Source: an uncultured Muribaculaceae bacterium
Lineage (GTDB): Bacteria > Pseudomonadota > Alphaproteobacteria > Rs-D84
Assembly (NCBI GenBank): GCA_965231035.1
Contig: OZ246409.1
Coordinates: forward strand, 571,101 to 603,100
Direction of reading: 5' to 3'
Length of the DNA stretch: 32,000 bases
Part shown: piece by piece, positions 4,286-31,770 of the stretch
Layout: each line of letters begins with the position of its first letter
Position numbering within the stretch: position 1 is the first letter of the stretch
Program-made: the position numbers and the translations under genes
The notes under the pieces: model-generated
What the model was told of the DNA's origin: nothing
What the model saw: only the letters and a program-made list of their open reading frames with translations
The model's database searches: none

Positions 4286-4297
4286 TTTTTCTCCTTT

Positions 4298-5566: not shown

Positions 5567-5573
5567 GCAATAA

Positions 5574-5602
5574 ACTGTAATTTATATTTTATAAATCGTC
5601 AA
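5574..5602 (-). promoter_or_regulatory. Candidate sigma-70 promoter for the lipoprotein pair (TTGACG-17 nt-TACAGT)
   Basis: The minus strand reads TTGACG-ATTTATAAAATATAAAT-TACAGT-TTATTGC-ATG. There is no Shine-Dalgarno, and the -10 ends 7 nt before the ATG at 5566, which implies a leaderless or near-leaderless mRNA. Confidence 0.3.
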
Positions 5603-5608
5603 TCTTAA

Positions 5609-7855
5609 TTATTTAGACACGGTTTCCAAGTACTCTTTGCCAACAGTGTCTAATATTTTTATTTCTTTTGTTTTTGGATTTAGAACTTTTGGTGTTCCGC
5701 CATATCCCATAGCCGCATGATGTAATGGTATCAAGAATTCTGGTAAAGGCGAACTTTCACCCATTTCCATAAATTTCTTCAATTTTTCATCTTTCCAGGC
5801 AGGTTGGTGATCTGCTTCGATTGGTCGGTTATAATATCCTTGGAATATTACGATTTGTTTTTTAGGACTTAACTTCATAATATCCATTTCGCTGTAAAGA
5901 ATGTCATGACCAGTTTCTTCTGTAACTTTGCCTTTGTCATCCTTCTTTTCTTTAATTTTCATCTTATAACCCATCATTTCCGAGAATCGCTTTGCGGTAT
6001 CAGGGTCGTTTTGACGCAATACAATTTTCGCAGCTGTTGTTGAAACAATGGTAGCTGCAGCATCTGCACCATATTTTTCCTGAATCTGGTGCAGGTCTTG
6101 ACCAATAATCAAATATGAAATCTGCTGACCGCGACCCAAATCTGGACCCTGGATAACGGCCTGTAATTTTTGCATTTTTGGCATCTCATCCAGAATGAAT
6201 AATACAGGAAATGTTCCAAGCTTTTGCCCGTTCAAAACATTACCAGGCGGGTTTGCCAAAAGGAATTTTGACATCAATTCAATAAATATTCCGGTGATCG
6301 GATTTAATGCCTCGGCATCAACCATGTTAATTGAAAGATAAACTGTAACCGGCTTAATATTTCCATCACGTGGGTCTTTCAATCCGCGCAAATCCGAAAA
6401 ATGAAAATCAGAATGACTAGTACGATTTCTAACGGCTGCGTTTCGGAAAATTCCAAGTCCCGCCATAACGGTAGATAAGATAGACCCACGTTCCTTGTCT
6501 GGTGTATTTGCCAATTGTGTTAATTCCAAAATAGCACGGTGTGAATATGCATACTGACGGGCTTCATTAACAGCGTCCAAGAACAAATCCTTCATTGGAT
6601 CCGCCATCATAACCATCTGGTCACCTTGTTTACGACGGTTTTCAAGGTCTTCGGCAATTCTTAACTGGTTTGCGTTTAACCAATCAAGAATCATGGAAAG
6701 TGAAGCCTCCTTTCCGTGCCAGACATCTGGAATATTTGCCCATGTTCCAATATGAACATAATTCATTACATTTAATTCACCAGAACGCAACCGTGCAACC
6801 GCAGCATATGCGTTTGGGTCATTAATCATAGATATATAATAATCATTCAGAACAGTTGCATCTTCTTGATCAAAAGTTCCGTTTGATAATCTGGTATAGA
6901 AATAATCATCAGCCTTGGCGCGTTCAATTTTTGAAATCATAAACTGAATCAAGCCAGATAACGCAGCGCGACCAGAAATTGTCCAGTGCGGATCAGCCGA
7001 GCTGGCTGTTTTTTCAGCAATCAAAACACTGCAAATTGTATCAACATACAAATCGCGTTGTTCTTGATTAAAAGGTACATGCTCTGGTGACAGTGGATTC
7101 CAGCTGGGATAATAAATTCCGTTTGCAGGATCATCTTGTCCCGCCCAATTCATAATAAATACCGGACCCACAGTTGCACGATACGCAGATGATGATTGTT
7201 TCAATTCAGGCTTTGGATCGTTAATAATCATTGATACATTGTTACATTCAAAAATTGTGGGTAATACGACACCCTGGGTTTTACCAGTTCCCGGAGGTGC
7301 CACACACAAAGTAGAAAGACATTCGTTCATCATCAAAGGCTTTTTCTTGAAATATCCCAGAACCATCATAAAACCATTTAATAAGCCCATTTTTTCAATA
7401 TCAGCCTTGGTTGCCTTGTTTGAAGATTTTTCATCAAATTTATCATTTCCATAAGGATTAAATTCACTAACAAGTGTCGAATCAACCAAGATGTGATAAA
7501 CAATAAATGGAATCAAAGGGGTAATGCAAGCAATGTCAGTTTGCATTACAGAGCGTGTCAACCATGCAGGAATTTCCGCTAAAATTGATAAACCACCAGA
7601 AAAAAGCATATTTTGAAAGAATAAAGAAATCCATTTCCATGTTGCGGGTGACCAGCCGTATCTCCAAATATGTTCAACTGCAAAAGATAAACCAAAAGCA
7701 ACCGCACAAGACAACCAAATACCAGAAGCCCAACGCATTTTCCAAAATAATTGCGCCATAGGCTTTTGCAAATGTTCTTTGTACGAACTGGATTTGAAAA
7801 TATTCAAACCTTTGGATTCGCCACCTGCTGATAAAATCTTGAACTTGTCTACCAT
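5609..7855 (-). CDS. virD4: Type IV secretion coupling protein (T4CP), TraG/VirD4 family ATPase
   Basis: N-terminal TM helices. Walker A LCVAPPGTGKTQGVVLPTIF, compared with VirD4 ApTrSGKGvg.ViPnLL. IINDPKPELKQ, compared with DiKGE. Walker B FILDEMPKMQKL. IIGQDLHQIQEKYG, compared with the Qs..QL...YG motif. The track start at 7918 is TTG and would overlap rsmE, so I prefer the ATG at 7855 (MVDKFKIL...). Confidence 0.85.
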   Translation of the reverse strand: MVDKFKILSAGGESKGLNIFKSSSYKEHLQKPMAQLFWKMRWASGIWLSCAVAFGLSFAVEHIWRYGWSPATWKWISLFFQNMLFSGGLSILAEIPAWLTRSVMQTDIACITPLIPFIVYHILVDSTLVSEFNPYGNDKFDEKSSNKATKADIEKMGLLNGFMMVLGYFKKKPLMMNECLSTLCVAPPGTGKTQGVVLPTIFECNNVSMIINDPKPELKQSSSAYRATVGPVFIMNWAGQDDPANGIYYPSWNPLSPEHVPFNQEQRDLYVDTICSVLIAEKTASSADPHWTISGRAALSGLIQFMISKIERAKADDYFYTRLSNGTFDQEDATVLNDYYISMINDPNAYAAVARLRSGELNVMNYVHIGTWANIPDVWHGKEASLSMILDWLNANQLRIAEDLENRRKQGDQMVMMADPMKDLFLDAVNEARQYAYSHRAILELTQLANTPDKERGSILSTVMAGLGIFRNAAVRNRTSHSDFHFSDLRGLKDPRDGNIKPVTVYLSINMVDAEALNPITGIFIELMSKFLLANPPGNVLNGQKLGTFPVLFILDEMPKMQKLQAVIQGPDLGRGQQISYLIIGQDLHQIQEKYGADAAATIVSTTAAKIVLRQNDPDTAKRFSEMMGYKMKIKEKKDDKGKVTEETGHDILYSEMDIMKLSPKKQIVIFQGYYNRPIEADHQPAWKDEKLKKFMEMGESSPLPEFLIPLHHAAMGYGGTPKVLNPKTKEIKILDTVGKEYLETVSK

Positions 7856-7864
7856 TGTGATAAC

Positions 7865-7873
7865 ATTATACCA
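7865..7873 (-). promoter_or_regulatory. Candidate extended -10 promoter (TGGTATAAT) for the T4CP gene
   Basis: The minus strand reads TGGTATAAT-GTTATCACA-ATG. This fits TGnTATAAT perfectly, sits 9 nt from the ATG at 7855, and has no SD, which suggests a leaderless transcript. Confidence 0.35.
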
Positions 7874-7902
7874 GAATAATGGTCGAAAATTAAGAATTAA
7901 GA

Positions 7903-8556
7903 ATGAAAAATATACCAAGAATTTTTATAAATGAAAAAATCGAGCCTGGTAAGAAAATATCAGTCGAAAAGGATGTTTTGCATTACCTTAAAAAAGTTAT
8001 GCGAACTGATAAGTGCCTGATTTTCAATAATGGCGAAGAATTTTACGCAAACTTGAATGAGGATAACAAGTATTTGATTGCGGATAAAAAAACAGAACAT
8101 TCTGACCCCAGCAATGAGATAACTTTTTATTTTGCGCCAATAAAGAAAACAGATGAAATGTTAAATATGGTAACCCAAATGGGTGTGAAGCGCTTGCAAC
8201 CTGTTATAACAGACAGAACTGTTGCACATCATATTAACTGGGACAGAATTAAAAAAATTATAATCGAGGCATCCGAACAATCAAATAGAAACAGTGTTCC
8301 AGAATTATTATCACCAATAAACTTTTCAGAATTGAGTAAGAAAGATTTGTATTTTGCTGATGAACGTGCTGCGTATGATGTTGAGATTAAAAATTCGGCA
8401 AATAGGGCAAAGAATATATTAATTGGTCCCGAAGGTGGTTTTTCAGAATCAGAATTCGCGGCATTGGATTCTTCTGGTGCGGTTGGAATTTCTTTGGGTA
8501 AAACTATTTTGCGTGCTGAAACTGCTGCTGTGGCTGCGCTGGCAAAGATTATATAA
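7903..8556 (+). CDS. rsmE: 16S rRNA (uracil1498-N3)-methyltransferase RsmE
   Basis: N-terminal PUA-like start (RIFINEKIEPGKKISVEKDVLHYLKKVMR) and the C-terminal SPOUT knot motif ILIGPEGGFSESE...ISLGKTILRAETAAVAAL. Confidence 0.9.
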   Translation: MKNIPRIFINEKIEPGKKISVEKDVLHYLKKVMRTDKCLIFNNGEEFYANLNEDNKYLIADKKTEHSDPSNEITFYFAPIKKTDEMLNMVTQMGVKRLQPVITDRTVAHHINWDRIKKIIIEASEQSNRNSVPELLSPINFSELSKKDLYFADERAAYDVEIKNSANRAKNILIGPEGGFSESEFAALDSSGAVGISLGKTILRAETAAVAALAKII

Positions 8557-9255
8557 ATGAAAATAAGAATTGCAAAATTTTTGGCTGACAGTGGTGTTGC
8601 ATCCAGGCGCAAAGCAGAAAGGCTGATTGAATCTGGTGTTGTAATGGTTAACGATGAAAAAATAACCAGTCCTGTATTTTTTGTTGATGGTTCAGAAAAA
8701 ATAACTGTTTTAGGAAAATTGGTTAAATCAGAAAATAAAACAATGCTTTATGCTTTTCATAAACCAATAAATACAATGACGACTGCAAAAGATCCAGAAA
8801 ACCGAAAAACAATTTATGATGTTTTACCAAAAGAATACAAAAATTTGAAATACATCGGTCGACTGGATTATAAAACTACAGGCTTATTGCTTCTGACAAA
8901 TGATGGGGAACTTGCACGAAAATTAACTTTGCCGTCATCAGAAATACCACGAATTTATATCGCTGATGTGATGGGAAATGATTTTTCCGGTCTTGATAAA
9001 ATTATTCGCGGAATTACGGTTGATGAAATTAAATATCGCCCTATGAAAATAGATATCTTGAAAAATAATGAATTGAAAATCACAATAACCGAAGGAAAAA
9101 AGAACGAAATTCGTATAGTTTTGGCAGCTGTGGGATTGCCGGTTAAAAAATTACACAGAATATCGTATGGAAATATAAACCTTGGAAATCTTTCGGTTGG
9201 GGAAATTATTGAAATTCCACAGAAAAGCATTGACGGACTGCTAAAATATTTCTAA
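8557..9255 (+). CDS. Pseudouridine synthase, RsuA/RluB/RluE/RluF family (S4 domain plus catalytic domain)
   Basis: S4 domain IRIAKFLADSGVASRRKAERLIESGVVMVND. Catalytic motif GRLDYKTTGLLLLTNDGELA. Also EGKKNEIR and the KLHRISYG tail. The start abuts the rsmE stop with zero intergenic nt. Confidence 0.85.
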   Translation: MKIRIAKFLADSGVASRRKAERLIESGVVMVNDEKITSPVFFVDGSEKITVLGKLVKSENKTMLYAFHKPINTMTTAKDPENRKTIYDVLPKEYKNLKYIGRLDYKTTGLLLLTNDGELARKLTLPSSEIPRIYIADVMGNDFSGLDKIIRGITVDEIKYRPMKIDILKNNELKITITEGKKNEIRIVLAAVGLPVKKLHRISYGNINLGNLSVGEIIEIPQKSIDGLLKYF

Positions 9256-9283
9256 ACTTAGACTATGGAAGAGGGAGAATTTC

Positions 9284-10285
9284 ATGAAGAAAAAAACAGC
9301 CAAGAAAAAAACAGCTCCTGTAAAAGTTTCTAAGCCTGTTGCCAAGGAAGTATCTTTGGTCACAAAAAACATAGAAAAAAAAGAGCGTCATTTTAATGCT
9401 TGGTCTTTATCTATTTATGTTTATTGGTTTATTATTTTATTCTTTATTTCTGCCACATTTTATATTTTGGGACGCAGTCATGGAATATTGCACCCAATAT
9501 CCAGCAATGTAGAAATAACAGAAGAAGCTTTGATGCAGTCAAACCAGTATTTTGATGCGGGTAAAAAGAACCTGTTAGAGGGTAATGTTGACGATGCAAT
9601 CAAAGATTTAACTGCGGCGGCTAATGTTGAAAATCCTTCTGTGGATACATTTATTTTGCGTGGTGAAGCGTATATGCAATCAGGTGATTATAAAAACGCA
9701 ATGACAGATTTTAACAAAGTAATCGAAATGGACTCTATGAATTCTGTTGCTTTTTATGATCGTGCTTTATTGAATACCAGGTTGGAAGATTATACGGCTG
9801 CTTTGACGGATATTAACAATGCATTGGCAGCACGCGCAGTTCATCCAAATGATATTTTGCAGTTACGCGATATTTATGCAAAACGTGGTCAGTTAAATTT
9901 GTGGTTAAAAAATTGGGACGGTGCGGTTGTTGATTACACAAATTCTTTAGCGCGCCCAGAAGGTGTTATAAACCCATCTGTTTATGCCGAACGTGCCGAG
10001 GCTTATACAGCTTTGAATAAATATGTCGAGGCTGCCGATGACTATATATCCGCGGTCCGTATAATATCTGAACAGATTCAAGGTGCAACAGACAAGGAAG
10101 TTCGTGAGGATTTATCACGTCGTGCAGCAGGTTATTTTGAAAAGGCAGCTGCATTAAAAGTTAGAATGGGTGATATGGAATCTGCGAAAAGTGATTTAGA
10201 ATCATCTTTGACAATCTGGACGGCTTTGGACGATTCAGAATCTATGGACAGGGTCAAAGGGCTTATTTCTGGAACACAACAATAA
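9284..10285 (+). CDS. Membrane-anchored TPR-repeat protein
   Basis: SD GAGGGAG. A Lys-rich N-terminal tail (MKKKTAKKKTAPVKVSKPVAKE) and one TM helix (WSLSIYVYWFIILFFISATFYILG). Several TPR-like units follow (..GNVDDAIKDLTAAANVENP.., ..GDYKNAMTDFNKVIEMDSMN.., ..EDYTAALTDINNALA..). Confidence 0.7.
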   Translation: MKKKTAKKKTAPVKVSKPVAKEVSLVTKNIEKKERHFNAWSLSIYVYWFIILFFISATFYILGRSHGILHPISSNVEITEEALMQSNQYFDAGKKNLLEGNVDDAIKDLTAAANVENPSVDTFILRGEAYMQSGDYKNAMTDFNKVIEMDSMNSVAFYDRALLNTRLEDYTAALTDINNALAARAVHPNDILQLRDIYAKRGQLNLWLKNWDGAVVDYTNSLARPEGVINPSVYAERAEAYTALNKYVEAADDYISAVRIISEQIQGATDKEVREDLSRRAAGYFEKAAALKVRMGDMESAKSDLESSLTIWTALDDSESMDRVKGLISGTQQ

Positions 10286-10310
10286 AAAAACCGCCAAATG
10301 GCGGTTTTTT
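10284..10310 (+). terminator. Rho-independent terminator of the TPR gene
   Basis: aaaaaaa-CCGCC-aaat-GGCGG-tttttt, immediately after the stop at 10285. Confidence 0.75.
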
Positions 10311-10347
10311 AGTTATTAGTTATCAATTATTAATTATCAGTATTAAT
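10310..10347. repeat. Tandem heptamer array (left arm): T-AGTTAT T-AGTTAT C-AATTAT T-AATTAT C-AGTATT
   Basis: Read directly from the sequence. It has 7-nt periodicity and abuts the terminator T-run. Confidence 0.5.
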
Positions 10348-10554
10348 TCCCAGTCCTAGGTTTCCATTGTGTCATTGCACTTGTCTTGTCATAGTTTTAA
10401 TGAAGGCAAAAGGAATAAAATAATGAAAGTAACTAAGTAAGTTATAATTTCTGGCGAGCAAAGCGAGAAAAGGGAACATTTGCGCGTGAATAAAAAATAG
10501 GCACTAGGTATTATACGTATTTAGTACTGAATATTAGGTATCAGGTACTAGTTT

Positions 10555-10585
10555 TTATAATTTATAACTTATAACTGATAACTTA
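10555..10585. repeat. Tandem heptamer array (right arm), inverted relative to the left arm
   Basis: TTATAA-T-TTATAA-C-TTATAA-C-TGATAA-C-TTA. Its reverse complement is AGTTAT-C-AGTTAT-A-AGTTAT-A-AATTAT. The hexamer cores match the left arm at 23 of 24 positions by my alignment. Confidence 0.5.
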
Positions 10586-10612
10586 AAAATCCCGCCATTT
10601 GGCGGGATTTTT
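10585..10612 (-). terminator. Rho-independent terminator of the 1011-aa Cys-rich protein gene
   Basis: aaaaat-CCCGCC-attt-GGCGGG-attttt. On the minus strand the stem is followed by a T-run, directly after the stop at 10614. Confidence 0.75.
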
Positions 10613-10613
10613 A

Positions 10614-13600
10614 TTATTCCATTTCAGTGCTGATTATATCACCGTACATACCGACTTCGTCTGCGCCGATATAACAACGGATATGATTACCAACATCGTT
10701 CATCCAAGATTCCTGTTCGGAATCGAATTTTGCACGATTACCCGCTTTGATAACTTGCGCGGTACCAACACCCAGCGCAATACCACCAACAACAGCCCCA
10801 GCACCATTAACAATCTTACGAGTGTTACTATCATTTGATATTGGTTTGTCAGTTGCACCACAAAGGTTCAGGTTCCCTTGCATTTCGCTAATAGCGCTAT
10901 CTATATGAGTCCCCTTGTTTGCATTGTCTGCGCTTGTAGATACAATTTTATATGTATACCCCAACGTTGAAACACGTTCAGATACAACAGCATCTTGTTT
11001 TTGATCGCTATTACTTTTGGCATCTTGTAGTTCTTTGATAGAAGCCATAAATTTATCTTCGCATGCTTTTGCTTCTTTATTGGATTTAGTAACTTCTTTT
11101 GTATCATCTGTTCCCAATAATCCACCAAGGCTGCCTTTTTGTAGATAATTTGTAGCAATGCCACCACCTACGGCACCCAATACTGACGTACCAGCAGTCA
11201 ACCATCTTTGACCTTTGGTCATTTTACCGCTAGATGATGTACCAGTCTCTCGGGCTGCAACTTTGTTTGCAATTGCTTCCAGTTCACTGCCTGGGATCCA
11301 GCTGCCGCAAGTGAATGAATCACCGGCTGCATAGTATGCTGTGCTCCAATCTTTACCAGAATTAATTGCATCTTGGATATCTTTGTCATCAGATTGCAAT
11401 GTGATGCGGATTCTGCAGAAGCTTCCGTACAAATCGTTGCTGGCAGAGAATTGACTGTCTTTTAGACCATTAGACGCATAGCTTGCTGGAACCTTTGCAC
11501 TTTTCATTTTTACCCACATATATGTGCTGCCATTTTCACGAGCACCAATGATACCGCCTTCGTTATCGGACAAGCACATATTTTGTTGTTTTGTCAGCTT
11601 GGCATTATATTTTGCCTGAGCTTCGATTTCCAAATCATAGATAAGGTCGTTGAATACAGAACGTTCTGATTGTGCAATATTATATGCATTTTCAGATACC
11701 ATTTTTGGATATACATATCTTCCATTAGAGCTGTCGCAACGTCCAGCATCACCAGTTCCGTTTGCACCTGTTGTGCACAGCAGATTTCCATCAGCGTCAG
11801 TATCTTGGATGTTACCACTGGATGTGGCAGAATATGTTCCAGAATCCAACCATCCTGTACGAGTATCTGTTACACCAGTACCCCAAGAGTCTGCTGTGCT
11901 GGGCCCTGTTGTACGACGAGCAGATTCAGCCTTGATATGTTCTTCGCATGTTGGGTTGTTCTTGACACTGTTCATGCATAAACCAATTATAATTGTGTGA
12001 TCCAGAACACCACCGACCTTGTTCATACTTTTATCAAATGAAGCACTGCCAGTGTTTGTCAGAACAGAATAGACGTCTGTACGGTTGCGATAGCAATTAG
12101 AATAATCTTCACCGCACATTGATTTTACACAACCTGTGGCGATTGCCTGGCACTGTCTTTTCATGTTATCCAAAGAAGATTGATTATAAGACAATGACAG
12201 CTTTGAATTCAAAGCAGCAACTGCACCAACCGCATCAGGATTCGTTGCAGTTGTATCATTTGCGGCTGTAAACAAGATATCAAACAAACTGCCCGACAAA
12301 TAGCTTATAATACCAGTTGCAGATTGAAATGTTACAACCGAGTACTTGCAGTATGTATCGTTATTTACAACAGCTTCGCATCCATATTTTATATCAGCCA
12401 AAGTTGTTGGATTTGTAACACCCTTGATAGTATTATCAGAATCAAATGCAGATGCATAGCATGCCGCACCGCTGCCTTGACCACATGTACGCATCGCACA
12501 AGATGTAATTGTATCTTGGCACTTCTGTTTTGTCTTTTTATCAAATGTTGTAATTAAATCATCAATTTTGGACTTCATAGAATCATTCATACGTGAAGAA
12601 TAAGCATCTGAATAAATAGTATCTTTGTTATCTTCATCTTGAAGTTGAGAATTTGTTGGCATAACACCATTTCCAACGAATGTAGCATAGCAGAACTTGT
12701 TTGCACCAATTGTATCATAACAAGAATCTTTCAAGAAACCTGCAATTTCAGATTTATTAACTGCACCAGAATCTGTTACATAAGGAGTTGTAGTAGTCGT
12801 TGGATTTGCAACAAAAGTATTTCCAGCTGCATCAACCAATGTGTGAGATGTTCCTTCCTTGCATTTATAAGGATTTTGTGCGCAAGCATTCAAAATACAT
12901 TGGTCTGCAACCTTGTAACAAGTTGCAACTGCATTAACAGCTGCCAAAGCAGCGCCTTCGGAAATCATAACACCCAGACGGCTGGTTGCTGTTGGATTAG
13001 CAGCAGTATTAGTTGAACCAAACAATTCGGTTTTGCCACCATTTTCGCATCTTGCAAGTGTTGATTCACAGAAAATCTTTTGTGTTTGAAATTCGGCATT
13101 GCTGGTACATAATTCGAAATCTGAACCGCAAACATCATCTTTTTTCAAGCAACTGGTATATTTTTTAACACAAGTGCTGGTGTCATAGCGATTGTTAACG
13201 TATGCCGCACCAATCAGTTGACCCAGAACACTGCCACTAGTTGGATAAACATATTCACCAGCAGAATTTTTATTAGAAAAGGCCGTTTGATTGCTTGTTC
13301 CAAAAAGGCTGTTTACACCGGAGGTTTTGCACTGCATCAAAGTGCTGGCGCATTGTGGTTTTTTGCCAAAGAACAGTGTATTATTGGTGCATTCTTCAAA
13401 GTTTGCACCGCAAACATCGCCACCTTTCATACATGCTGTGTATGCATCAATACAATCTTTGTCGGCAAGCATCGATACAGCGGTATTACCAGATGTAGAC
13501 GATGTGGAATTACCACTAATCTGAGCAGTTATTGTAGGCATTCTGGACACTGCACTTCCAAGAACACTTGGACGTGCGGTCGAAGCAGAAGCCGCAGGAA

Positions 13601-13649
13601 TAACCGCCAAAACAGACATAAAACCGAATACTTTTTTAAGAAAAATCAT
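10614..13649 (-). CDS. Giant secreted Cys-rich protein (1011 aa), function unknown; C-terminal Gly-zipper-like hydrophobic segments
   Basis: ATG with GGAGGAAG upstream. Signal peptide MIFLKKVFGFMSVLAVIPAASA|S. About 38 Cys by my count, arranged in recurring C-x6-C(-x4-C) patterns. Two Gly-rich hydrophobic stretches lie near the C-terminus (WLTAGTSVLGAVGGGIATNYL; IVNGAGAVVGGIALGVGTAQVI). I recognised no known domain. Confidence 0.8.
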   Translation of the reverse strand: MIFLKKVFGFMSVLAVIPAASASTARPSVLGSAVSRMPTITAQISGNSTSSTSGNTAVSMLADKDCIDAYTACMKGGDVCGANFEECTNNTLFFGKKPQCASTLMQCKTSGVNSLFGTSNQTAFSNKNSAGEYVYPTSGSVLGQLIGAAYVNNRYDTSTCVKKYTSCLKKDDVCGSDFELCTSNAEFQTQKIFCESTLARCENGGKTELFGSTNTAANPTATSRLGVMISEGAALAAVNAVATCYKVADQCILNACAQNPYKCKEGTSHTLVDAAGNTFVANPTTTTTPYVTDSGAVNKSEIAGFLKDSCYDTIGANKFCYATFVGNGVMPTNSQLQDEDNKDTIYSDAYSSRMNDSMKSKIDDLITTFDKKTKQKCQDTITSCAMRTCGQGSGAACYASAFDSDNTIKGVTNPTTLADIKYGCEAVVNNDTYCKYSVVTFQSATGIISYLSGSLFDILFTAANDTTATNPDAVGAVAALNSKLSLSYNQSSLDNMKRQCQAIATGCVKSMCGEDYSNCYRNRTDVYSVLTNTGSASFDKSMNKVGGVLDHTIIIGLCMNSVKNNPTCEEHIKAESARRTTGPSTADSWGTGVTDTRTGWLDSGTYSATSSGNIQDTDADGNLLCTTGANGTGDAGRCDSSNGRYVYPKMVSENAYNIAQSERSVFNDLIYDLEIEAQAKYNAKLTKQQNMCLSDNEGGIIGARENGSTYMWVKMKSAKVPASYASNGLKDSQFSASNDLYGSFCRIRITLQSDDKDIQDAINSGKDWSTAYYAAGDSFTCGSWIPGSELEAIANKVAARETGTSSSGKMTKGQRWLTAGTSVLGAVGGGIATNYLQKGSLGGLLGTDDTKEVTKSNKEAKACEDKFMASIKELQDAKSNSDQKQDAVVSERVSTLGYTYKIVSTSADNANKGTHIDSAISEMQGNLNLCGATDKPISNDSNTRKIVNGAGAVVGGIALGVGTAQVIKAGNRAKFDSEQESWMNDVGNHIRCYIGADEVGMYGDIISTEME

Positions 13650-15173: not shown

Positions 15174-15674
15174 TTATTTTTTAAATTCTATGGTTATTTT
15201 TTTCACCCCAGTAACAGGTGAAGATAAAATATAAGAAAATGGTGCGGTATTTCCACTTTCTAAAAGTGTTGCGGGTGACATAACCTTTTGTTGGGTTAAA
15301 ATGTTTCCCTGGTCATCATGTGAAATAATTATTAAATCTGGAACACCATAAATATCTTTGGATTTATTTTTTACAAAACCGTTAACAACAAAGTGCTGAA
15401 CGCCAGCTTCGTCAGTAATTGTATTTATTTCAGAAATCTTTGCAGTTAAAGGATTTTTTTTAATATCATTTGAATTGTATTGAGCAATCACAACAAAAGT
15501 AAAAACAATTGCGGCCAATAATGCGCATATCGAGGCAATAAAAACCAAAAAGGAATTTTTGCGTCTGGGTTGTTTTACATTCCAAACATGTCCGCAAACA
15601 ATACATTGAACAGGCGAAGTCGGTGCCGAGTTCAAAGTATATTCAGTCTTACAAAATTCACATACGGTTTTCAT
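15174..15674 (-). CDS. MJ0042-type zinc-ribbon / single TM / DUF3426-like protein (ZitP-like)
   Basis: N-terminal CxxC...CxxC ribbon MKTVCEFCKTEYTLNSAPTSPVQCIVCGHVWNV. A basic linker and a TM helix (FLVFIASICALLAAIVFTFVVIA). A beta-rich periplasmic domain ends in ..GVKKITIEFKK. This is the same architecture as Caulobacter ZitP. Confidence 0.7.
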   Translation of the reverse strand: MKTVCEFCKTEYTLNSAPTSPVQCIVCGHVWNVKQPRRKNSFLVFIASICALLAAIVFTFVVIAQYNSNDIKKNPLTAKISEINTITDEAGVQHFVVNGFVKNKSKDIYGVPDLIIISHDDQGNILTQQKVMSPATLLESGNTAPFSYILSSPVTGVKKITIEFKK

Positions 15675-15694
15675 TATCAGATTTATACCATAAT

Positions 15695-17032
15695 TTAATT
15701 CAAATTCAATTGGTTATATTTTAACTTAACTTTTTTCTGGATTTCAGAAATTGCATTCATAAAATCTGAAGCGGTTGCATTATCGTTTGTAACAACAGAA
15801 TTAAATGATTGACTACTGGTTGTTTTGGTTGCTGCTTCTTTTTTTACAATCAATGGTGCCATACGGCTTAACTCGGCTAATGATATATCAGAAAGGTTAG
15901 CTGTGCTAGTGTTTGCATCCCAAAAGTAATTAGAATCAGATGAATCTTCGATACGACTTTTTACAATCAATTTTGGGGTAACAGAGTTATCAAATCCAAT
16001 GGTAACAAACATAGCGGTCACATGTCCTGCAACCATATCAATTGTTTTATTAACTTTTAGAACTGTTGCATCCGAACCAGAAGGGTTTAAAACAGAAAAT
16101 CCAGATAAATTTAAATTATTTACCCACATATCATCGGTTGTAAAACTTGCAAACCTGGCAGAGTTTGCCAAAGTTAATATCCCCGATACATCCATACTTC
16201 TTGAATCTGAAGATAATGTTCCAGCAACAACAGCGTCCTTAATAGTAACTTTTTTATCCACAATTACTCTTTTCTGAAATGTCAGATTATCCGAAACAGA
16301 TTTCTCGGATTTTAAAATTTCTTCAAATTTTGCGGAGTCTGAATCAAGTAATTTTGTTTCAGTTATATTATGTCCAGCCAAATTCAAATCAGATTCCATA
16401 GTTGCATCTGTAGAGTTTTCAGACGGTATTCGCCATAAATATTCATTTGTATCCAGTTTTGTATTAGTTGTTCCAACAATACCATGCAGACCTTCAATTC
16501 CAAAATCAACAGCATTACCGTGCCATGTTCCAAATGCACCAAATGCTTTGCCTTTTTCAACAAAACCCATTTTATTATTTCCCAAGTTTATAATTTCCCG
16601 TGTTCTTATTGGTGAAATATTTTTATCGTTTAAAACAATAATTCCTTGTAATGTTGAATGACCATTATTATCACTGGATTTTAATATTCTGATTTGCAGT
16701 TTATCGCCATATTGTTTTAATGAATCTTCGCTGATTCCATAGTCTGCAAGATCTGAAACCTCGACCCTGGTTATATTTTTACCAACAGTTTTAAGTAATT
16801 CTTTTTTGTTTGTATTAATATATTTTTCCAAAGCAGATTGAACAGTTTCAATTTGTTTTTCTATGGCGATATTTTCTGAACGTTCAATACGTGATTTTTG
16901 AAAATTTATAATAAATGGCAAAACCACAGCCACCAATGCCAGGGTCAATAAAAGTTCAATCAACATTCCGCCACGTTCATTATTTTTGTTCAAGATGATT
17001 TTTTTTATTTTCATAAATTCTATTGCTTCCAT
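15695..17032 (-). CDS. Large prepilin-like protein C (445 aa): class III signal / pilin alpha-1 helix, PilV-like motif, repeat-rich C-terminal half
   Basis: N-terminus ...NKNNERG|GMLIELLLTLALVAVVLPFIINF has Gly at -1 and Glu at +5. Internal motif NEYLWRIPSENSTDATMESDLNLAGHNITE. The start is ATG at 17032 (13-nt overlap with the upstream gene) or ATG at 17014. Confidence 0.7.
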   Translation of the reverse strand: MEAIEFMKIKKIILNKNNERGGMLIELLLTLALVAVVLPFIINFQKSRIERSENIAIEKQIETVQSALEKYINTNKKELLKTVGKNITRVEVSDLADYGISEDSLKQYGDKLQIRILKSSDNNGHSTLQGIIVLNDKNISPIRTREIINLGNNKMGFVEKGKAFGAFGTWHGNAVDFGIEGLHGIVGTTNTKLDTNEYLWRIPSENSTDATMESDLNLAGHNITETKLLDSDSAKFEEILKSEKSVSDNLTFQKRVIVDKKVTIKDAVVAGTLSSDSRSMDVSGILTLANSARFASFTTDDMWVNNLNLSGFSVLNPSGSDATVLKVNKTIDMVAGHVTAMFVTIGFDNSVTPKLIVKSRIEDSSDSNYFWDANTSTANLSDISLAELSRMAPLIVKKEAATKTTSSQSFNSVVTNDNATASDFMNAISEIQKKVKLKYNQLNLN

Positions 17033-18234
17033 CCGGTTTTAAGTATTTTGCTGAAATCTGAATCGCTTGGCATATTTGGAATTGTTGCACGGTAAAGTCC
17101 AAGTTCTGAAAACTTTGGGGGTGTAGATGACGGAAAAGACCAACTTCCGATTTTAATAGGTGGTGTGGCAGACATCATTAATTCACCAGAAACTGTCAAT
17201 CCATAGTTGTTATAAAAATTAATCTGGTCAGAATACAAGAAAGATGTATATATTGAATGCGCAATTATTCCTGAAAATCCGGAAATAGTTTTTGTTGAAT
17301 CAGATTTCACGGTTAAGTTGTTACCAATGTTTAAAGAATTATTAACAGTTGCCTTGTCTGTAATAATATTACCATTAGTAGAAAAACCAGAATCGTTTAA
17401 TTTCTTTGCAGAAATATTTCTGAATCCTGAAATATCATCGCTTACCCGCATAGAACCAATATTTACATTGCCGGCATCCATATTTGCGCCACTGGAAAAA
17501 TATACAGATCCCGCGTTAACATTTTTTGATTCCATAAATGCAGCTGACAAATCTTTTATTTTTACAGATTCAGCAGCCAAAGTACCAATATTGAAAATAT
17601 TGAATTTTCCCATATTCAAATTTCGCTGCATAACATTAAAATCATCTTTTCCAGAAGTGCTGCGATGTAAATATTTTGAAACATCGTCGCCCACAAAGCT
17701 GTAATTCACACGATAAACCAGATCACCTGGTTTGAAATCTGGGGCGGTCACAGCCCAAGATGTTCCATATGCAACACCATCTTTGTCTACGCTGGCGGCG
17801 TCCATGCCAATTTGCTTTACAACCTTAGCTGTGTGTAATGCATCTCCACCTAAATCAAAAGCCAGATAAACATCAGTTACAATTGAACCGTTAACCTGGT
17901 ATTTATCAACAAAGCCGGCATGTGCTGAATCTGTAATTTTATTAAGTTCATCCGCATTCAGTTTTATTTGTGCAATATTAGGCCATTTATCTTGATTAAC
18001 CCGTACAAAGTTAAGAACAGGATCGTGCAAACTGATAACTTGCTTTGCAATAGATATGTCACGAATCTGTTGTGAAGTTTCGGAAATTTGATTATAAATA
18101 AATGGACTTAAGATTGCTATGATTCCCAGCACCAATAATATTTCCAATATGCTGGCGCCACGCTGTTCGGTATTTCTGACAGTGTTAAAATTTTCAGAAA
18201 AAATATTTTCTTTAATCACAATCACTTTTTCCAT
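17020..18234 (-). CDS. Large prepilin-like protein B (404 aa)
   Basis: N-terminus ...RNTEQRG|ASILEILLVLGIIAILSPFIYNQ has Glu at +5 and a 26-aa leader from the only in-frame ATG. Internal motif SKYLHRSTSGKDDFNVMQRNLNMGKFNIFNIG. The C-terminal half has N/S/G-rich short repeats (NVNAGSVYFSSGANMDAGNVNIGSMRVSDDISG...). It overlaps the upstream gene by 23 nt. Confidence 0.7.
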   Translation of the reverse strand: MEKVIVIKENIFSENFNTVRNTEQRGASILEILLVLGIIAILSPFIYNQISETSQQIRDISIAKQVISLHDPVLNFVRVNQDKWPNIAQIKLNADELNKITDSAHAGFVDKYQVNGSIVTDVYLAFDLGGDALHTAKVVKQIGMDAASVDKDGVAYGTSWAVTAPDFKPGDLVYRVNYSFVGDDVSKYLHRSTSGKDDFNVMQRNLNMGKFNIFNIGTLAAESVKIKDLSAAFMESKNVNAGSVYFSSGANMDAGNVNIGSMRVSDDISGFRNISAKKLNDSGFSTNGNIITDKATVNNSLNIGNNLTVKSDSTKTISGFSGIIAHSIYTSFLYSDQINFYNNYGLTVSGELMMSATPPIKIGSWSFPSSTPPKFSELGLYRATIPNMPSDSDFSKILKTGWKQ

Positions 18235-19567
18235 CCAACAAACATTGTTTTACATTAATTCTTTTTTCCAATCTTTCCCAATAAACATACTGGCAAATAA
18301 TATTTTGTGATAAAGATTTAGAATTATAAACACCGTTAAGGCCAGAAATTATAGATTTGCAAGTAACAGTAGAAGAATCATCTTCGGTTGGTTTTGATAA
18401 TATTTTGAAATTGTCATTGTTTATACTGTCGACCAGAACGTCTGGCAAAACAGATGTTCCCGCTGGTCTGATATCCAAAATAACCGCACCAGTTTTACCG
18501 TTTGCCAACGCTGTTGATGTTTGGTCACGTAATGTAATATTTGCAGCATATATTTTATCAACTTCTACACCGCTTTCCGAGCTGTATTCTAATGAGTCTG
18601 GATTTATAAAAACATCTTGTCCACGTGCAGCATTTAAAAATGAAGATAATTCCAAGCGTTCTACTGACAAATTTATATTATCCAGAATCATATTTCCTTG
18701 GACTTTCCAATTTGTTGGACCTGTGAAACTGGTTTTGCCAGCAGTCATAGAAAAATCATAAACCGATGCAGAACCAGATGTGAAATTTCCAGAATCACCA
18801 AACCTGGAAATTGTTTTTGCAGACAAACTGTCCAATCCAAGTGTTCCACGTGTTATTGATAATGCAGCTTCCCCGGGATTACTTTGAAATATGGCTTTGT
18901 CCGCAGATAAATTTTCTATAACGCTACGAATTTTTTTACCACCTTCTGAACCAAATAGAGAAATATTATTAGCCTGTGTTGATTCAAATTCAGCATTTCT
19001 TCCAAATATTGAAAAAATATTTTCAAGTTTAAATCCACCCATATTCAATTCCGACAAAAAGCCGTTTGAGTCTGGTTTTTTTTCTTTACGTTTCACAATA
19101 TCAGAAAAACTTTCATCCAACGGAATAATCATATAAACATTTCCGTCTTTTTCAGATGCATAAAATCCCAATCTGCGAACAATCTCGGCCCGTTCAATAC
19201 CAGAAAGTTTTCCACCAGATATTTCAAGATATGCAGAAGTTGAATCCTTGGTTTTATCAATCACAAGGGATATTTTTTGACCAAAAGCAGTACGCGGGAT
19301 AAATCCCAAAGGCAAACCATACGGTTCCAAGGTATCTGTAAAATTATTTCCAGAAAGAATAGAAGTGTTGTATTCCAAAGAATCTAAATTTTCACGAATA
19401 TAAATTCCAGCAGCAGTTTGTGCCGTTTCTATTTGATTGGACACAGCATACATTTGAGAATCTTTATCGCGAATAGCCAGCTTTTGCGTAAAAAACGGAA
19501 TGAACGCAATAATTAATGCCAAAGCCAGCAAGGCTTGTAATAAAAAGTTTCCGCCCTGCCTTTGCAC
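18212..19567 (-). CDS. Large prepilin-like protein A (about 451 aa from the preferred GTG start), lacking Glu+5
   Basis: The track start at 19636 is TTG with no SD. AGGAGG (19574-19579) followed 6 nt later by GTG (19567) gives MQRQG|GNFLLQALLALALIIAFIPFF. Internal motif NGFLSELNMGGFKLENIF. Four Cys lie in the last about 50 aa (..VTCKS...NIICQ...KQCLLDGKSDCD). Confidence 0.65.
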   Translation of the reverse strand: MQRQGGNFLLQALLALALIIAFIPFFTQKLAIRDKDSQMYAVSNQIETAQTAAGIYIRENLDSLEYNTSILSGNNFTDTLEPYGLPLGFIPRTAFGQKISLVIDKTKDSTSAYLEISGGKLSGIERAEIVRRLGFYASEKDGNVYMIIPLDESFSDIVKRKEKKPDSNGFLSELNMGGFKLENIFSIFGRNAEFESTQANNISLFGSEGGKKIRSVIENLSADKAIFQSNPGEAALSITRGTLGLDSLSAKTISRFGDSGNFTSGSASVYDFSMTAGKTSFTGPTNWKVQGNMILDNINLSVERLELSSFLNAARGQDVFINPDSLEYSSESGVEVDKIYAANITLRDQTSTALANGKTGAVILDIRPAGTSVLPDVLVDSINNDNFKILSKPTEDDSSTVTCKSIISGLNGVYNSKSLSQNIICQYVYWERLEKRINVKQCLLDGKSDCD

Positions 19568-19726
19568 AAGCACCCTCCTACAAACCAATACTTTACTAAA
19601 ACCGCTTTTTTGGTGCAATGAAAAAAAATATTGCAATCGGTTTTCAGATGATTTATTATCAAGCAGTTGATTAGAACGATAGTGATTTATTTGCTATCCA
19701 AATTTACCTCCAATTAAAGATAAAAT

Positions 19727-21675: not shown

Positions 21676-22131
21676 ATGAGAGAAGAATCCGGTCGTTCAT
21701 TAATCGAAGTATTAGGTGTCTTGGCAATAAGTGGTATTTTAACTGCTGGTGCTATTGCGGCTTATAACACAATTCGCACGCGTCAGAACAGAATAATTGC
21801 AACAGACCAATTGGAACTGATTGCAAAAAATACAAAATTGTTATTGGAAGTTAAGGGTGATTATACCGGCGTATCAGTTGATTATTTGATAAAAGCAGGT
21901 GCACTTAAAAATAACAAGACACCAATTGGTGGATCTGGATGGACAATTACATCCAGTGTTGATGGAAAAGAATTTAATATAAACCTGGTTGGATTGTCTA
22001 AATCTGATTGTGCATACCTTACAACTGTTAAATTGAATTGGACAACAGCTATCCGTGTAAATGGCAGTGAAACAAATCCCGGTAACTTCTGTGCTGCGGG
22101 TAAAAATGATGTTTCACTGATAGTTCAATAA
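21676..22131 (+). CDS. Type IV pilin-like protein (151 aa, short leader)
   Basis: SD AAAGGGG. MREESG|RSLIEVLGVLAISGILTAGAIAAYN has Gly at -1, Glu at +5 and a hydrophobic alpha-1. The C-terminal Cys pair (..SKSDCAYLT....GNFCAAG..) looks like a pilin D-region disulfide loop. Confidence 0.75.
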   Translation: MREESGRSLIEVLGVLAISGILTAGAIAAYNTIRTRQNRIIATDQLELIAKNTKLLLEVKGDYTGVSVDYLIKAGALKNNKTPIGGSGWTITSSVDGKEFNINLVGLSKSDCAYLTTVKLNWTTAIRVNGSETNPGNFCAAGKNDVSLIVQ

Positions 22132-22811
22132 TGAATTCAAAAAAAATATTTTTACCAATTGTTTTAATCGGACTGTTATCAGCCTGTGTTCGTTATGTTA
22201 CACCGCCACGCGAAAACTGGGGGAATTATTTACAAGGTTCCAGCTTTACAGATATGACAGCAGAAGCTAAAATTGCAAAAAAACCTGTTTATCTGGGGGC
22301 AGGGGGTAAATTAATAACTTCGGAATTAAATTCTGTAAAATTAGAATACGGGGATAAGGACGCAAATGAAAACAGTTTTGCTTTGAAATATATGGAAAAG
22401 CTGGAATATGAACTTTATGATTCTTTGCGTAAACCTGGAATTTCAGTTCAGCGTGCGGGTACGGATATCGTAGTAATTTTGGTCAGGGATGCGTTTATTA
22501 AAATGGATGCACCAGAAATTTCAAGCTCTGGCGAAGATACCCTGGGGATAATTTCAGAAATTCTTAAAAAATATGATGCAACTTTTATAGAGGTCGCGGG
22601 ATACACCGATTCTATGCGTGACCAGAATGCCGCACGGGCTTTATCTTTGGATATGGCGGAAAGGGTCGCTTTGTTTTTGGCCCAGGATGAAATTAATACA
22701 TCTAGAATATTTATTGTTGGTCGAGGCTCGGCCCGCCCAATCGCTGCCCAAGATGACATTGGCAGATTGACGAATCGCCGGGTCGAGATAAGAATTTCTC
22801 CCGCACGCTAG
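22131..22811 (+). CDS. OmpA/MotB-family peptidoglycan-binding lipoprotein
   Basis: Lipobox GLLSA|C. OmpA_C motif FIEVAGYTDSMRDQNAARALSLDMAERVALFL...GRGSARPIAAQDDIGRLTNRRVEIRI. The start overlaps the pilin stop (TAATG). Confidence 0.85.
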   Translation: MNSKKIFLPIVLIGLLSACVRYVTPPRENWGNYLQGSSFTDMTAEAKIAKKPVYLGAGGKLITSELNSVKLEYGDKDANENSFALKYMEKLEYELYDSLRKPGISVQRAGTDIVVILVRDAFIKMDAPEISSSGEDTLGIISEILKKYDATFIEVAGYTDSMRDQNAARALSLDMAERVALFLAQDEINTSRIFIVGRGSARPIAAQDDIGRLTNRRVEIRISPAR

Positions 22812-29850: not shown

Positions 29851-30041
29851 TGAATTTGGAAAAACATCCAAACTTAAACTTAAGTCAAATGTGCATATCC
29901 TAGACAGGTAGTAGGTTTACATAGATTTATATCGTATAACCTCGTTAAAATACTTGTCTTGCGAAATATATGTAAAGACGAACTGACATTATTGTCAGCT
30001 TTGTTCTTTGTGCACAGGCTTAAACATCAAGGTTTTTATAA

Positions 30042-31530
<1,489 letters not shown>

Positions 31531-31572
31531 ATAGATTAAACCGTTTCACGAAACGGTCATATTCCAACGGCG

Positions 31573-31588
31573 ACTGTCTGAATATCTC
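31573..31588 (+). other. 3' half of the putative 16S precursor processing stem
   Basis: See 29835-29850. It lies about 43 nt after the mature 16S 3' end. Confidence 0.45.
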
Positions 31589-31693
31589 TTTTTGAAAAAT
31601 GTATGGCAATTAGCAGTTAGTATCAGTTATTGCTGGATTGCGTGATCTTATAAGATTATGTGATTAAAAGTAATAGTTGATCACTGTTTTTAT

Positions 31694-31770
31694 GGGTCAG
31701 TAGTTCAGTTGGTTAGAATGTCGCTCTGATACAGCGAAGGTCGAAGATTCGAGTTCTTCCTGACCCACCA
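31694..31770 (+). tRNA. tRNA-Ile (anticodon GAT), CCA encoded
   Basis: Cloverleaf folded by hand. Acceptor GGGTCAG/CTGACCC. Anticodon stem TCGCT/AGCGA with loop CTGATAC (GAT at 31728-31730). T-stem GAAGA/TCTTC with loop TTCGAGT. Discriminator A followed by CCA. Confidence 0.95.

Follow-up and report, generated by a model that had tools for sequence, protein, structure and literature searches.

What part could three adjacent genes for unusually large pilin-like proteins play in a gut bacterium belonging to a lineage with genomes below 1 Mb? The question is raised by a 32,000-nucleotide stretch of DNA (GenBank assembly GCA_965231035.1, contig OZ246409.1, positions 571,101 to 603,100 of the forward strand; termed here the window, whose own numbering is used throughout), which comes from an uncultured member of the alphaproteobacterial GTDB order Rs-D84 and has a G+C content of about 36%. 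Rs-D84, which comprises Candidatus Enterousia and its kin, occurs widely in mammalian, avian and termite guts; its genomes lack amino acid, nucleotide and lipid biosynthesis, and its members have been proposed to be obligate symbionts or parasites (PMC12306168). No literature was found on pili, or on the three genes considered here, in Rs-D84 or Enterousia. The answer given here is that these genes, termed P1, P2 and P3 and together the trio, constitute a previously undescribed branch of the PilV/type IVb minor pilins and a core module of widespread, ultra-reduced gut bacteria.

The locus had been singled out by an original prediction, made from the letters of the window, which described three minus-strand genes overlapping by 23 and 13 nucleotides, encoding prepilin-like proteins of 404-474 residues and followed by a zinc-ribbon gene and by a gene for a small secreted protein. 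The list of open reading frames (ORFs) contains the trio at the predicted coordinates, and both downstream genes are present as well. The features from which the argument starts are these:

18212..19567, minus strand: P1, a PilV-like pilin-class protein of 451 residues, whose ORF extends to a TTG at 19636
17020..18234, minus strand: P2, a PilV-like pilin-class protein of 404 residues
15695..17032, minus strand: P3, 445 residues by its longest ORF and probably 439 residues from 17014
21676..22131, plus strand: a candidate major pilin of 151 residues
19585..19665, minus strand: a promoter-like non-coding element, identified in an alignment of 19 upstream regions

Two start codons differ from those of the longest ORFs. 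P1 most likely starts at the GTG at 19567 rather than at the TTG at 19636, because AGGAGG stands 6 nucleotides upstream of the former, because its orthologues begin M-[QHR]-[RK]-Q-x-G, and because several orthologues have stop codons within the 'MQYFFS' extension that the longer version would add; P1 is therefore 451 residues long. In view of those stops the extension was rejected as coding sequence, and the region is instead conserved promoter-like DNA, which is why the P1 ORF seemed 23 codons longer. Of the 19 upstream regions aligned, 17 contain this strongly conserved element (ATCTgAAAACyGATTGCAATAtTTTTTTTC..TTGCTAT.CT), which in most relatives takes the form TTGCAA-N17-TAT[GT]CT, a sigma-70-type promoter pattern. 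In the window itself the P1-directed -10 part is degenerate; on the plus strand, a scan for promoter consensus sequences picks out TTGCAA-17-TATTAT (19631-19659), and the palindromic TTGCAA also fits a promoter facing the DUF4167-like gene on the opposite side. P3 probably starts at Met7 (17014), as in its orthologues, and the 13-nucleotide overlap with P2 therefore becomes a 5-nucleotide gap. Thus both predicted overlaps hold for the longest ORFs (P1/P2 by 23 and P2/P3 by 13 nucleotides), but the second is likely to disappear; among the predicted sizes, the 404 residues of P2 stand, and the longest version, that of P1, is shortened.

All three proteins carry the class III (prepilin) signal that had been predicted for them. 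With a slash marking the point after the conserved glycine, it consists in P1 of a 6-residue leader followed by G/NFLLQ (with Gln, not Glu, at +5), in P2 of a 26-residue leader followed by G/ASILE (Glu5), and in P3 of G/GMLIE (Glu5). Counted over about 80 species genomes, the signal recurs as G/N-F-L-L-Q among P1 orthologues (Gln at +5 in 78 of 81), as G/A-S-x-x-E among P2 orthologues (75 of 81), as G/[SGN]-M-L-x-E among P3 orthologues (76 of 81) and as G/R-S-L-I-E in all 79 orthologues of the 151-residue pilin, most of the exceptions being orthologues whose starts were wrongly picked. In the P2 family every aligned sequence has Glu31 (+5), and at least 90% of them have Gly26 (-1). That Gly-1 and Glu or Gln at +5 should be kept across some 80 species, despite an overall identity of about 50%, points to prepilin-type signals that are real and under strong selection. 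Matches of the N-termini of P1, P2 and P3 to the NCBIfam models for GspH, GspG, ComGE and PpdD are all below threshold (E 0.025-0.12).

The family to which these proteins belong emerges from profile comparison. Pfam and NCBIfam scans of the trio return nothing significant, and profiles were needed because a tblastn search with P2 against 72,556 PLSDB plasmids, thousands of which carry pilV, gave no PilV match. When family alignments were compared by hhalign with an alignment of the PilV constant region (from six IncI-type plasmids, 28-100% identical to R64-type PilV), P3 matched at 98.2% (E 3e-14, 268 columns), P2 at 97.1% (E 6e-11, 222 columns) and P1 at 96.9% (E 1.4e-10, 232 columns), and the PilV motif LYR..V....N.M...L.MGG.N..N.G aligned in register with a motif shared by the trio. 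Because the N-terminal helix is common to all pilins, alpha1 was then trimmed from both sides; the matches were retained at 95.9% for P3, 82.9% for P1 and 81.0% for P2, and the head of the 151-residue pilin, serving as a control, matched PilV without alpha1 at 0.1-0.5%. An exhaustive profile search with the P2 family among 1.84 billion representative sequences brought up 247 proteins at E <=1e-3, and Pfam Shufflon_N (PF04917) was detected in 6 of the 55 remote matches scanned (best E 1.9e-15). Trio members of other lineages, which are introduced below, match the six-sequence PilV hidden Markov model (HMM) at 1e-15 to 1e-21, and the P1 orthologues in two of these (L093 and L094) have precomputed, weak Shufflon_N matches. 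By remote homology, then, P1, P2 and P3 are placed as divergent members of the PilV (Shufflon_N) superfamily, and the resemblance to PilV that had been noted in the motif region is borne out.

The motif itself lies at 19013-19066 in P1, at 17584-17679 in P2 and at 16358-16447 in P3. As the original prediction had it, the motif is shared by all three, and the family alignments show that it is invariant within each family (in P2, for example, at Y188, L189, R191, N200, M202, R204 and M208); it reads YLHR..N.M.R.LNMG in P2 and YLWR..DATM..LNL.GH.I in P3. That the three are paralogues, though distant ones, is likewise upheld: BLASTP aligns them collinearly at 21-24% identity (E 4e-5, 3e-4 and 5e-6), showing the expected QIET.Q.A...YI in both P1 and P3, and hhalign matches P3 to P2 at 98.3% over 310 columns and P1 to P2 at 91%. 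The C-terminal half of P2 is rich in Ser and Asn, and the C-terminus of P1 has four cysteines (C403, C425, C442 and C450) that are invariant in its family alignment.

An AlphaFold2 model of P2 (51 sequences) agrees with this assignment to the pilin class. Residues 30-180 are modelled at a predicted local distance difference test (pLDDT) score above 90, with a helix from 29 to 83 (a 55-residue alpha1) followed by 6-7 strands in an antiparallel sheet, so that the head of P2 is predicted to have the pilin fold. Foldseek searches with the model against the PDB and against BFVD gave no match at E <=1e-3; the sole relevant neighbour is 9a1f_R, an Xcp minor pseudopilin (probability 0.89, target TM-score 0.57, E 0.2), and a phage tail-fibre match (E 0.015, probability 0.38) was set aside as not meaningful. 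Profile searches of the PDB with the P1, P2, P3 and PilV families returned only geopilin alpha1, and hence no solved relative by sequence.

How old and how general is this arrangement? A scan of one genome per species yielded 223 stretches that encode relatives. The best 80 of these 223 are all metagenome-assembled genomes named 'Candidatus Enterousia', 'Alphaproteobacteria bacterium' or 'Rickettsiales bacterium', and come from animal, human and termite guts; one is a circular chromosome of 958,618 bp. The P2 family has 944 homologues, those listed being about 400 residues long, 52-79% identical and without a Pfam domain; in public annotation P2 is a 'type II secretion system protein'. The order P1-P2-P3 is kept in 83 Rs-D84 loci, and the longer order that continues through the zinc-ribbon gene and the small-protein gene to rluD is kept in every Rs-D84 locus reaching far enough (81-83 loci). 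Opposite the trio, the block DUF4167-dnaX-pilin-ompA-skp is found in 80 of the 83 loci, and in one (L068) the dnaX-pilin-ompA-skp part moves as a block. Median identities are 48-56% for the module as against 66-77% for rluD and dnaX.

Outside Rs-D84 the order P1-P2-P3 recurs, with one-to-one orthology and always among housekeeping genes, in three stretches: L090, from a deep relative (8421-13343; 531, 455 and 653 residues), L091 (8588-12838) and L093 (8524-12713). In a fourth, L094 (5447-9809), three overlapping genes are laid out in the same way, and the P2-family profile search recovered two of their products. The trios of these other lineages are tandem and overlapping, with genes of 420-650 residues, and GapR and CcrM-like genes on their contigs suggest that they, too, belong to the Alphaproteobacteria. 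The flanking genes are dnaX and rluD in Rs-D84 and recO, lpxB and other housekeeping genes elsewhere, recO standing directly after the trio in L091 and L094. Because the order P1-P2-P3 recurs in at least three other lineages, the triplication is judged, from these comparisons of genes and gene order, to be old.

The trio can now be set beside the systems that it most resembles. Like PilV of the IncI1/IncI2 thin pilus (R64, TP114; PF04917), its members have a class III signal with Glu5, a length of about 400-470 residues, an alpha1 containing A..AAR.YI, a pilin head, the LYR..V.....N.M...L.MGG.N..N.G motif and short repeats rich in Gly, Asn and Ser, all in collinear order. Unlike PilV, which is the product of one gene, they are three diverged paralogues that Pfam and BLAST miss; they are chromosomal and lie among housekeeping genes rather than beside pilS, pilU or other pil genes; P1 has Gln5 in Rs-D84; and they lack a shufflon, an Rci recombinase and alternative C-terminal segments. 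They are not shufflon proteins, because sfx-like repeats and a recombinase are absent: a shufflon was looked for between 14600 and 19800, where short AT-rich two-copy repeats are all that was found, and the window contains no recombinase. The C-termini of the trio are conserved at full length across species, with no sign of switching. To speak of a novel type IV filament, as had been done, was too strong; what the trio represents is a divergent branch of the PilV family, triplicated, encoded on the chromosome and without a shufflon.

Two further observations concern the wider family. In another stretch (L092, 2403-5870) a single 1155-residue protein with a PilV-like N-terminal domain (PilV HMM E 9.4e-21) is encoded beside a resistance-nodulation-division (RND) efflux operon, and the profile search returned many proteins of 800-1236 residues in which a PilV-type head is fused to a much larger C-terminal region.

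Size was the property that first made the trio look anomalous, the reasoning having been that ordinary minor pilins have about 150-250 residues, so that proteins above 400 stand out. This is true only of type IVa pili and type II secretion systems (T2SS): TcpB has 423 residues (PMC5207764) and PilV about 430. A type IVb pilus has one minor pilin, a large protein composed of a pilin domain and beta-rich C-terminal domains, two of them in CofB; it forms an initiator trimer at the tip (PMC6048534), and this trimer anchors a secreted partner encoded in the same operon, as CofB does CofJ (PMC6048534), the small secreted protein of the operon docking on the CofB or TcpB trimer (PMC6048534, PMC5207764). 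With TcpB (the toxin-coregulated pilus of V. cholerae), CofB (the CFA/III pilus of enterotoxigenic Escherichia coli) and LngB the trio shares a length above 400 residues, a pilin domain that comes first, a proposed role as a trimeric starter of the filament at its tip and a small secreted protein in the operon. The former, however, are homotrimers of one gene rather than products of three, and their operons hold the whole assembly machine, none of which is found here; moreover, the families of P1, P2 and P3, when searched as profiles against the PDB, brought up no TcpB or CofB chain.

The other relevant comparison is with GspI-J-K of the T2SS and PilV-W-X of type IVa pili, in which three pilin-class proteins are likewise encoded side by side in translationally coupled genes. 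In systems with several minor pilins only one member lacks Glu5, and the filament has been proposed to start from it (PMC5207764). P1 is like GspK in that it alone lacks Glu5 and, at 451 residues, is the largest of the three, although this likeness holds only in Rs-D84 and L090; in structure, as noted, the head of P2 comes nearest to an Xcp minor pseudopilin. The differences are that GspI-J-K and PilV-W-X are unrelated families of 120-330 residues whereas P1, P2 and P3 are paralogues of one another, that P1 is encoded first and GspK last, and that P1 has no alpha-helical insert of the GspK type; the GspK/T2SSK models of Pfam and NCBIfam do not match it.

The genes around the trio provide the setting in which its function has to be understood. 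On the minus strand P1, P2, P3, the zinc-ribbon gene, the small-protein gene and rluD are nearly contiguous (with gaps of 20 nucleotides between P3 and the zinc-ribbon gene, 13 between the latter and the small-protein gene and 6 between this and rluD), and a gene for a Cys-rich protein follows after a gap of 71 nucleotides. Opposite P1, across a divergent intergenic region, come the DUF4167-like gene, dnaX, the 151-residue pilin, an OmpA-type lipoprotein and skp. The features concerned, together with the ribosomal RNA gene of the window, are these:

15174..15674, minus strand: a zinc-ribbon/transmembrane protein of ZitP architecture, 166 residues
14699..15160, minus strand: the small secreted protein, 153 residues
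13721..14692, minus strand: rluD, a 23S rRNA pseudouridine synthase of 323 residues (NCBIfam RluA subfamily, 245 bits)
10614..13649, minus strand: a Cys-rich secreted protein of 1011 residues, of no Pfam or NCBIfam family
22131..22811, plus strand: an OmpA-family peptidoglycan-binding lipoprotein of 226 residues (Pfam OmpA, E 1.5e-11)
30041-31770, plus strand: a complete 16S rRNA gene, then tRNA-Ile(GAT)

The candidate major pilin has, besides its 6-residue leader, G/RSLIE and alpha1, a conserved pair of cysteines (C112-C139). It comes close to Pfam N_methyl (E 8.7e-4; its score is 19.2 bits, the cut-off 21.2), more distantly to PilS (0.02), and a PDB profile search aligns it with TcpA over positions 8-119 (E 0.0069) and with geopilin alpha1 (E 0.0013). 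Its gene starts 19 nucleotides after dnaX, its stop codon overlaps the start of the OmpA gene by 1 nucleotide, and in 80 of 83 loci it lies 2 kb from the trio. The OmpA lipoprotein, which always follows the pilin gene and has NCBIfam matches to YiaD, PA1041, TssL, MotB and IcmN-like models, could possibly serve as an envelope anchor for a filament.

The zinc-ribbon protein consists of an N-terminal, cytoplasmic zinc ribbon (CxxC-x15-CxxC, with C5, C8, C24 and C27 invariant in the family alignment), one transmembrane segment at about residues 38-64 and a periplasmic, beta-rich domain of about 100 residues related, at the level of the family, to DUF3426. In Caulobacter crescentus, ZitP together with CpaM is required for the Cpa/Tad pilus, and the periplasmic DUF3426 domain is the part needed (PMC5182063); binding of PopZ and recruitment of CpaM are properties of ZitP known from Caulobacter only (PMC5182063). 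The ZitP architecture that had been predicted is seen at the level of the family, with Zn_ribbon_4 in all 36 orthologues (best E 6.9e-7), Zn_ribbon_5 in 18 and DUF3426 in 26 of the 36 (best E 5.2e-6); the window's own copy, however, matches Zn_ribbon_4 at E 2.7e-5 (24.4 bits against a cut-off of 30.3) and DUF3426 not at all at E up to 1. Thus the protein shares with ZitP, at the level of the family, its zinc ribbon, transmembrane segment and DUF3426 architecture, its invariant CxxC...CxxC and its alphaproteobacterial origin, but it has 166 residues to ZitP's 311 and, in the window copy, no significant DUF3426; no CpaM-like deacetylase or Cpa gene is seen in the window; and ZitP acts on a Tad (type IVc) pilus rather than a PilV-type one. 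As for the proposed tie between this gene and the trio, the two are adjacent in Rs-D84, but synteny there is frozen, and outside Rs-D84 the zinc-ribbon gene tracks rluD or is absent: in L093 it stands beside rluD and divergent from the trio, and in other cases it is missing from the neighbourhood. The case for a functional link between the zinc-ribbon protein and the trio is suggestive only.

The small protein, whose gene follows the zinc-ribbon gene in all 81 loci reaching that far, has a Sec signal peptide, a variable linker and four invariant cysteines, and matches no Pfam or NCBIfam family. Its best-conserved part is the mature N-terminus that comes after the linker, R-[VI]-S-[IL]-F-S-T-S-T-D-W. 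This segment is reminiscent of the N-terminal docking peptides of CofJ and TcpF. From the 6-nucleotide spacing to the small-protein gene, rluD is probably co-transcribed with the module; it is a housekeeping gene carried along with the module and takes no part in its function, and its adjacency to the zinc-ribbon gene is also kept in L093. The 1011-residue protein, which has repeated cysteine motifs (C..AY..C...GD.CG..FE.C) and a hydrophobic stretch near its C-terminus, is kept downstream of rluD in about 65 related loci (median identity 49.5%), with a 1239-residue version in L090, and could be a further surface or adhesion factor of the block. At a greater distance, the minus-strand region 3533-7918 encodes a VirD4/TraG-type coupling protein of a type IV secretion system (T4SS), which has 769 residues and a long N-terminal extension, then a 422-residue lipoprotein-like protein without a family, and then an LpoB-domain lipoprotein; the window contains no further T4SS gene.

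How, then, might the trio work? PilV homology, the conserved triplet and the precedent of type IVb minor pilins make the tip or priming role that was originally proposed the most reasonable reading. The selected prepilin signal, the pilin-fold head, the homology to PilV, the old and fixed triplet and the tight packing of the genes are established; what goes beyond them is inference. In the form that we infer, P1, P2 and P3 would each be inserted in the inner membrane by the N-terminal hydrophobic helix, and a prepilin peptidase encoded elsewhere in the genome would cut after the conserved glycine. The three would then combine in one complex of three members, starting a thin filament of the 151-residue pilin and capping it, with their pilin heads packing into the filament and their Ser/Asn-rich C-terminal halves forming the exposed tip; P1 would be the most distal subunit in Rs-D84, because it has Gln instead of Glu at +5. 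Such a tip would let the bacterium, which depends on others for its metabolism, attach to a partner cell or to the surface of a host, and may display the small secreted protein in the way that CofJ and TcpF are displayed by the trimers of CofB and TcpB; positioning or assembly of the apparatus may be aided by the ZitP-like protein. The claim that the trio forms a three-paralogue, trimeric, type IVb-like tip or initiator complex on a filament of the 151-residue pilin, serving attachment, is one to which credence and doubt are given in about equal measure.

A good deal weighs against it. Genes for an extension ATPase, a platform protein, an A24-type prepilin peptidase and a secretin (PilB, PilC and PilD among them) are absent from the window when every ORF of 100 residues or more is searched with the Pfam and NCBIfam models, as the original prediction had already observed; tblastn with PilL, M, N, O2, P, Q, R, S, T and U of IncI plasmids against 84 related loci (about 1.7 Mb) found nothing; and no machinery was seen around five further trios or in the DNA immediately to the left of the genes of the window (on a contig with an identical Der protein). 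These searches of the window, the related loci and the flanks covered a few per cent of the genome. Neither N_methyl (PF07963) nor Shufflon_N of Pfam matches P1, P2 or P3 of the window at E up to 1, nor does TIGR02532 match them above its curated cut-off. The one genomic study of Rs-D84 gives type IV pili for another lineage only (PMC12306168). Gln5 in P1 appears to be a derived feature of Rs-D84, because P1 orthologues outside it, namely those of L091 and L093, keep Glu5, the substitution being confined to Rs-D84 and L090. Throughout the 20-kb neighbourhood these very small genomes keep a frozen gene order, so that finding the pilin gene, the ZitP-like gene and the small-protein gene close to the trio is weak evidence of a shared function. 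The heterotrimer is proposed by analogy. Finally, there are the C-terminal halves, where TcpB and CofB have their beta-rich domains: residues 205-404 of P2 are modelled at pLDDT 50-78 with few assigned strands (a first run with 30 close sequences gave values below 50), and Foldseek against the PDB and BFVD matches these halves to no known adhesin fold. They had been described as rich in N, S, G and D and as beta-helical; the former is so (33-39% in the C-terminal as against 25-28% in the N-terminal parts), but the latter is not borne out by the model, a FapA beta-solenoid match below threshold (E 0.053) being the sole hint of a beta-helix.

Candidates for missing machine parts were also sought among the window's unassigned ORFs. 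A scan of transmembrane segments for peptidase-like polytopic proteins singled out one, a 198-residue ORF at 1453-2049 on the minus strand with about six hydrophobic segments, which was rejected because it lacks a GxGD motif and matches nothing in Pfam or NCBIfam; the idea that other unassigned ORFs might be diverged secretin or platform proteins found no support. The strongest argument for a working machine is indirect, namely that Gly-1 and Glu+5 are nearly invariant in four separate proteins of genomes that have lost nearly all that they can spare.

Several other explanations take the same observations in different directions. The trio might be the tip of a short, periplasmic, T2SS-like pseudopilus, an analogue of GspI-J-K, with the 151-residue protein as a GspG-like major subunit; acting as a piston rather than growing into an external fibre, it would drive proteins such as the small or the 1011-residue one through the outer membrane. 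The presence of three minor subunits, one of them without Glu5, would agree with GspI/J/K, where GspK alone lacks it (PMC5207764); the 151-residue protein has the size of GspG and a 6-residue leader; the weak NCBIfam matches of the N-termini include GspH and GspG, and P2 is annotated accordingly; the best structural neighbour is an Xcp pseudopilin; and two secreted proteins are encoded just downstream. Yet the homology is to type IVb PilV, with no GspH/I/J/K family above threshold, the 151-residue protein has a cysteine pair of the kind usual in pilins and is similar to TcpA and PilS, no GspD, GspE or GspF gene was found anywhere examined, and C-terminal extensions of 200-270 residues fit an exposed tip better, so that a pseudopilus of this kind is considered unlikely. 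A competence pilus or pseudopilus that imports DNA as a nutrient or for repair would suit a lineage without nucleotide biosynthesis (PMC12306168), and recO right after the trio in L091 and L094, radC nearby in L091, dprA 8 kb away in L090 and the weak match of P3 to ComGE (E 0.025) could be read in the same sense. But where genomes are compact, housekeeping genes such as recO, dprA and radC are commonplace neighbours, and neither comEA nor comEC is seen in the window or in the related loci. Competence minor pilins are not known to carry large adhesin-like C-terminal halves. Competence genes have, moreover, been reported for UBA9783 and not for Rs-D84 (PMC12306168), and DNA uptake is on balance quite improbable.

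Perhaps no filament exists at all, and P1, P2 and P3 are uncleaved, signal-anchored envelope proteins descended from pilins, for instance after loss of the pilus machine in genome reduction. This would explain why no machinery turned up in any place searched, why a published genome survey lists no pili for Rs-D84 (PMC12306168) and why the trio sits among housekeeping genes, probably co-transcribed with rluD. It would leave unexplained, however, why Gly-1 and Glu+5, which have no known role in an anchor, are nearly invariant in some 80 species (and in 79 of 79 cases in the 151-residue pilin); the retention of four pilin-class genes in genomes below 1 Mb speaks for a working system, and the absence of machinery was established over only a few per cent of the genome. 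Little credence is therefore given to the signal-anchor explanation. The filament might, alternatively, be an accessory of a T4SS, holding the target cell for VirD4-coupled transfer of DNA or effectors, like the PilV-tipped thin pilus of IncI plasmids when they conjugate in liquid; PilV, the closest characterised relative, is described in one account as acting in this way (PMC9045228), and the VirD4/TraG-type coupling protein is encoded 8 kb from the trio in the window and within 10 kb of it in 23 related loci. Against this, the coupling-protein gene is not always adjacent, and general synteny accounts for the cases in which it is; the protein itself is VirD4/TraG-like and not of the IncI (Dot/Icm-like) kind, and shufflon, recombinase and plasmid context are all wanting; the chance that the trio serves such a system is very slight.

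The attachment tip preferred here can also be put in a bolder form, in which the trio is an obligate heterotrimeric tip or initiator, an ancient version in three paralogues of the type IVb homotrimer. It would cap a filament so far overlooked, with which the whole order Rs-D84 and related lineages chiefly attach to partners and perhaps present proteins; its assembly genes would be dispersed, or too diverged for annotation to have caught them, and a miniature ZitP would position it. In this full extent the proposal is rather doubtful.

For Rs-D84, four pilin-class genes kept at about 50% identity in at least 80 species make the module a concrete candidate for a contact apparatus; type IV pili are described, in one account of ultrasmall Saccharibacteria, as serving those bacteria (PMC12206443). 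For the PilV/Shufflon_N family, the trio is an extension from plasmid conjugation to core genes of the chromosome that current Pfam models miss. For pilus biology, three diverged copies that are fixed in a constant order, with one lacking Glu5 in one order, are a natural experiment: they bridge the design with one big minor pilin (type IVb) and that with several different minor pilins (type IVa, T2SS), and thus offer a lead into how homotrimeric initiators evolved into heteromeric ones.

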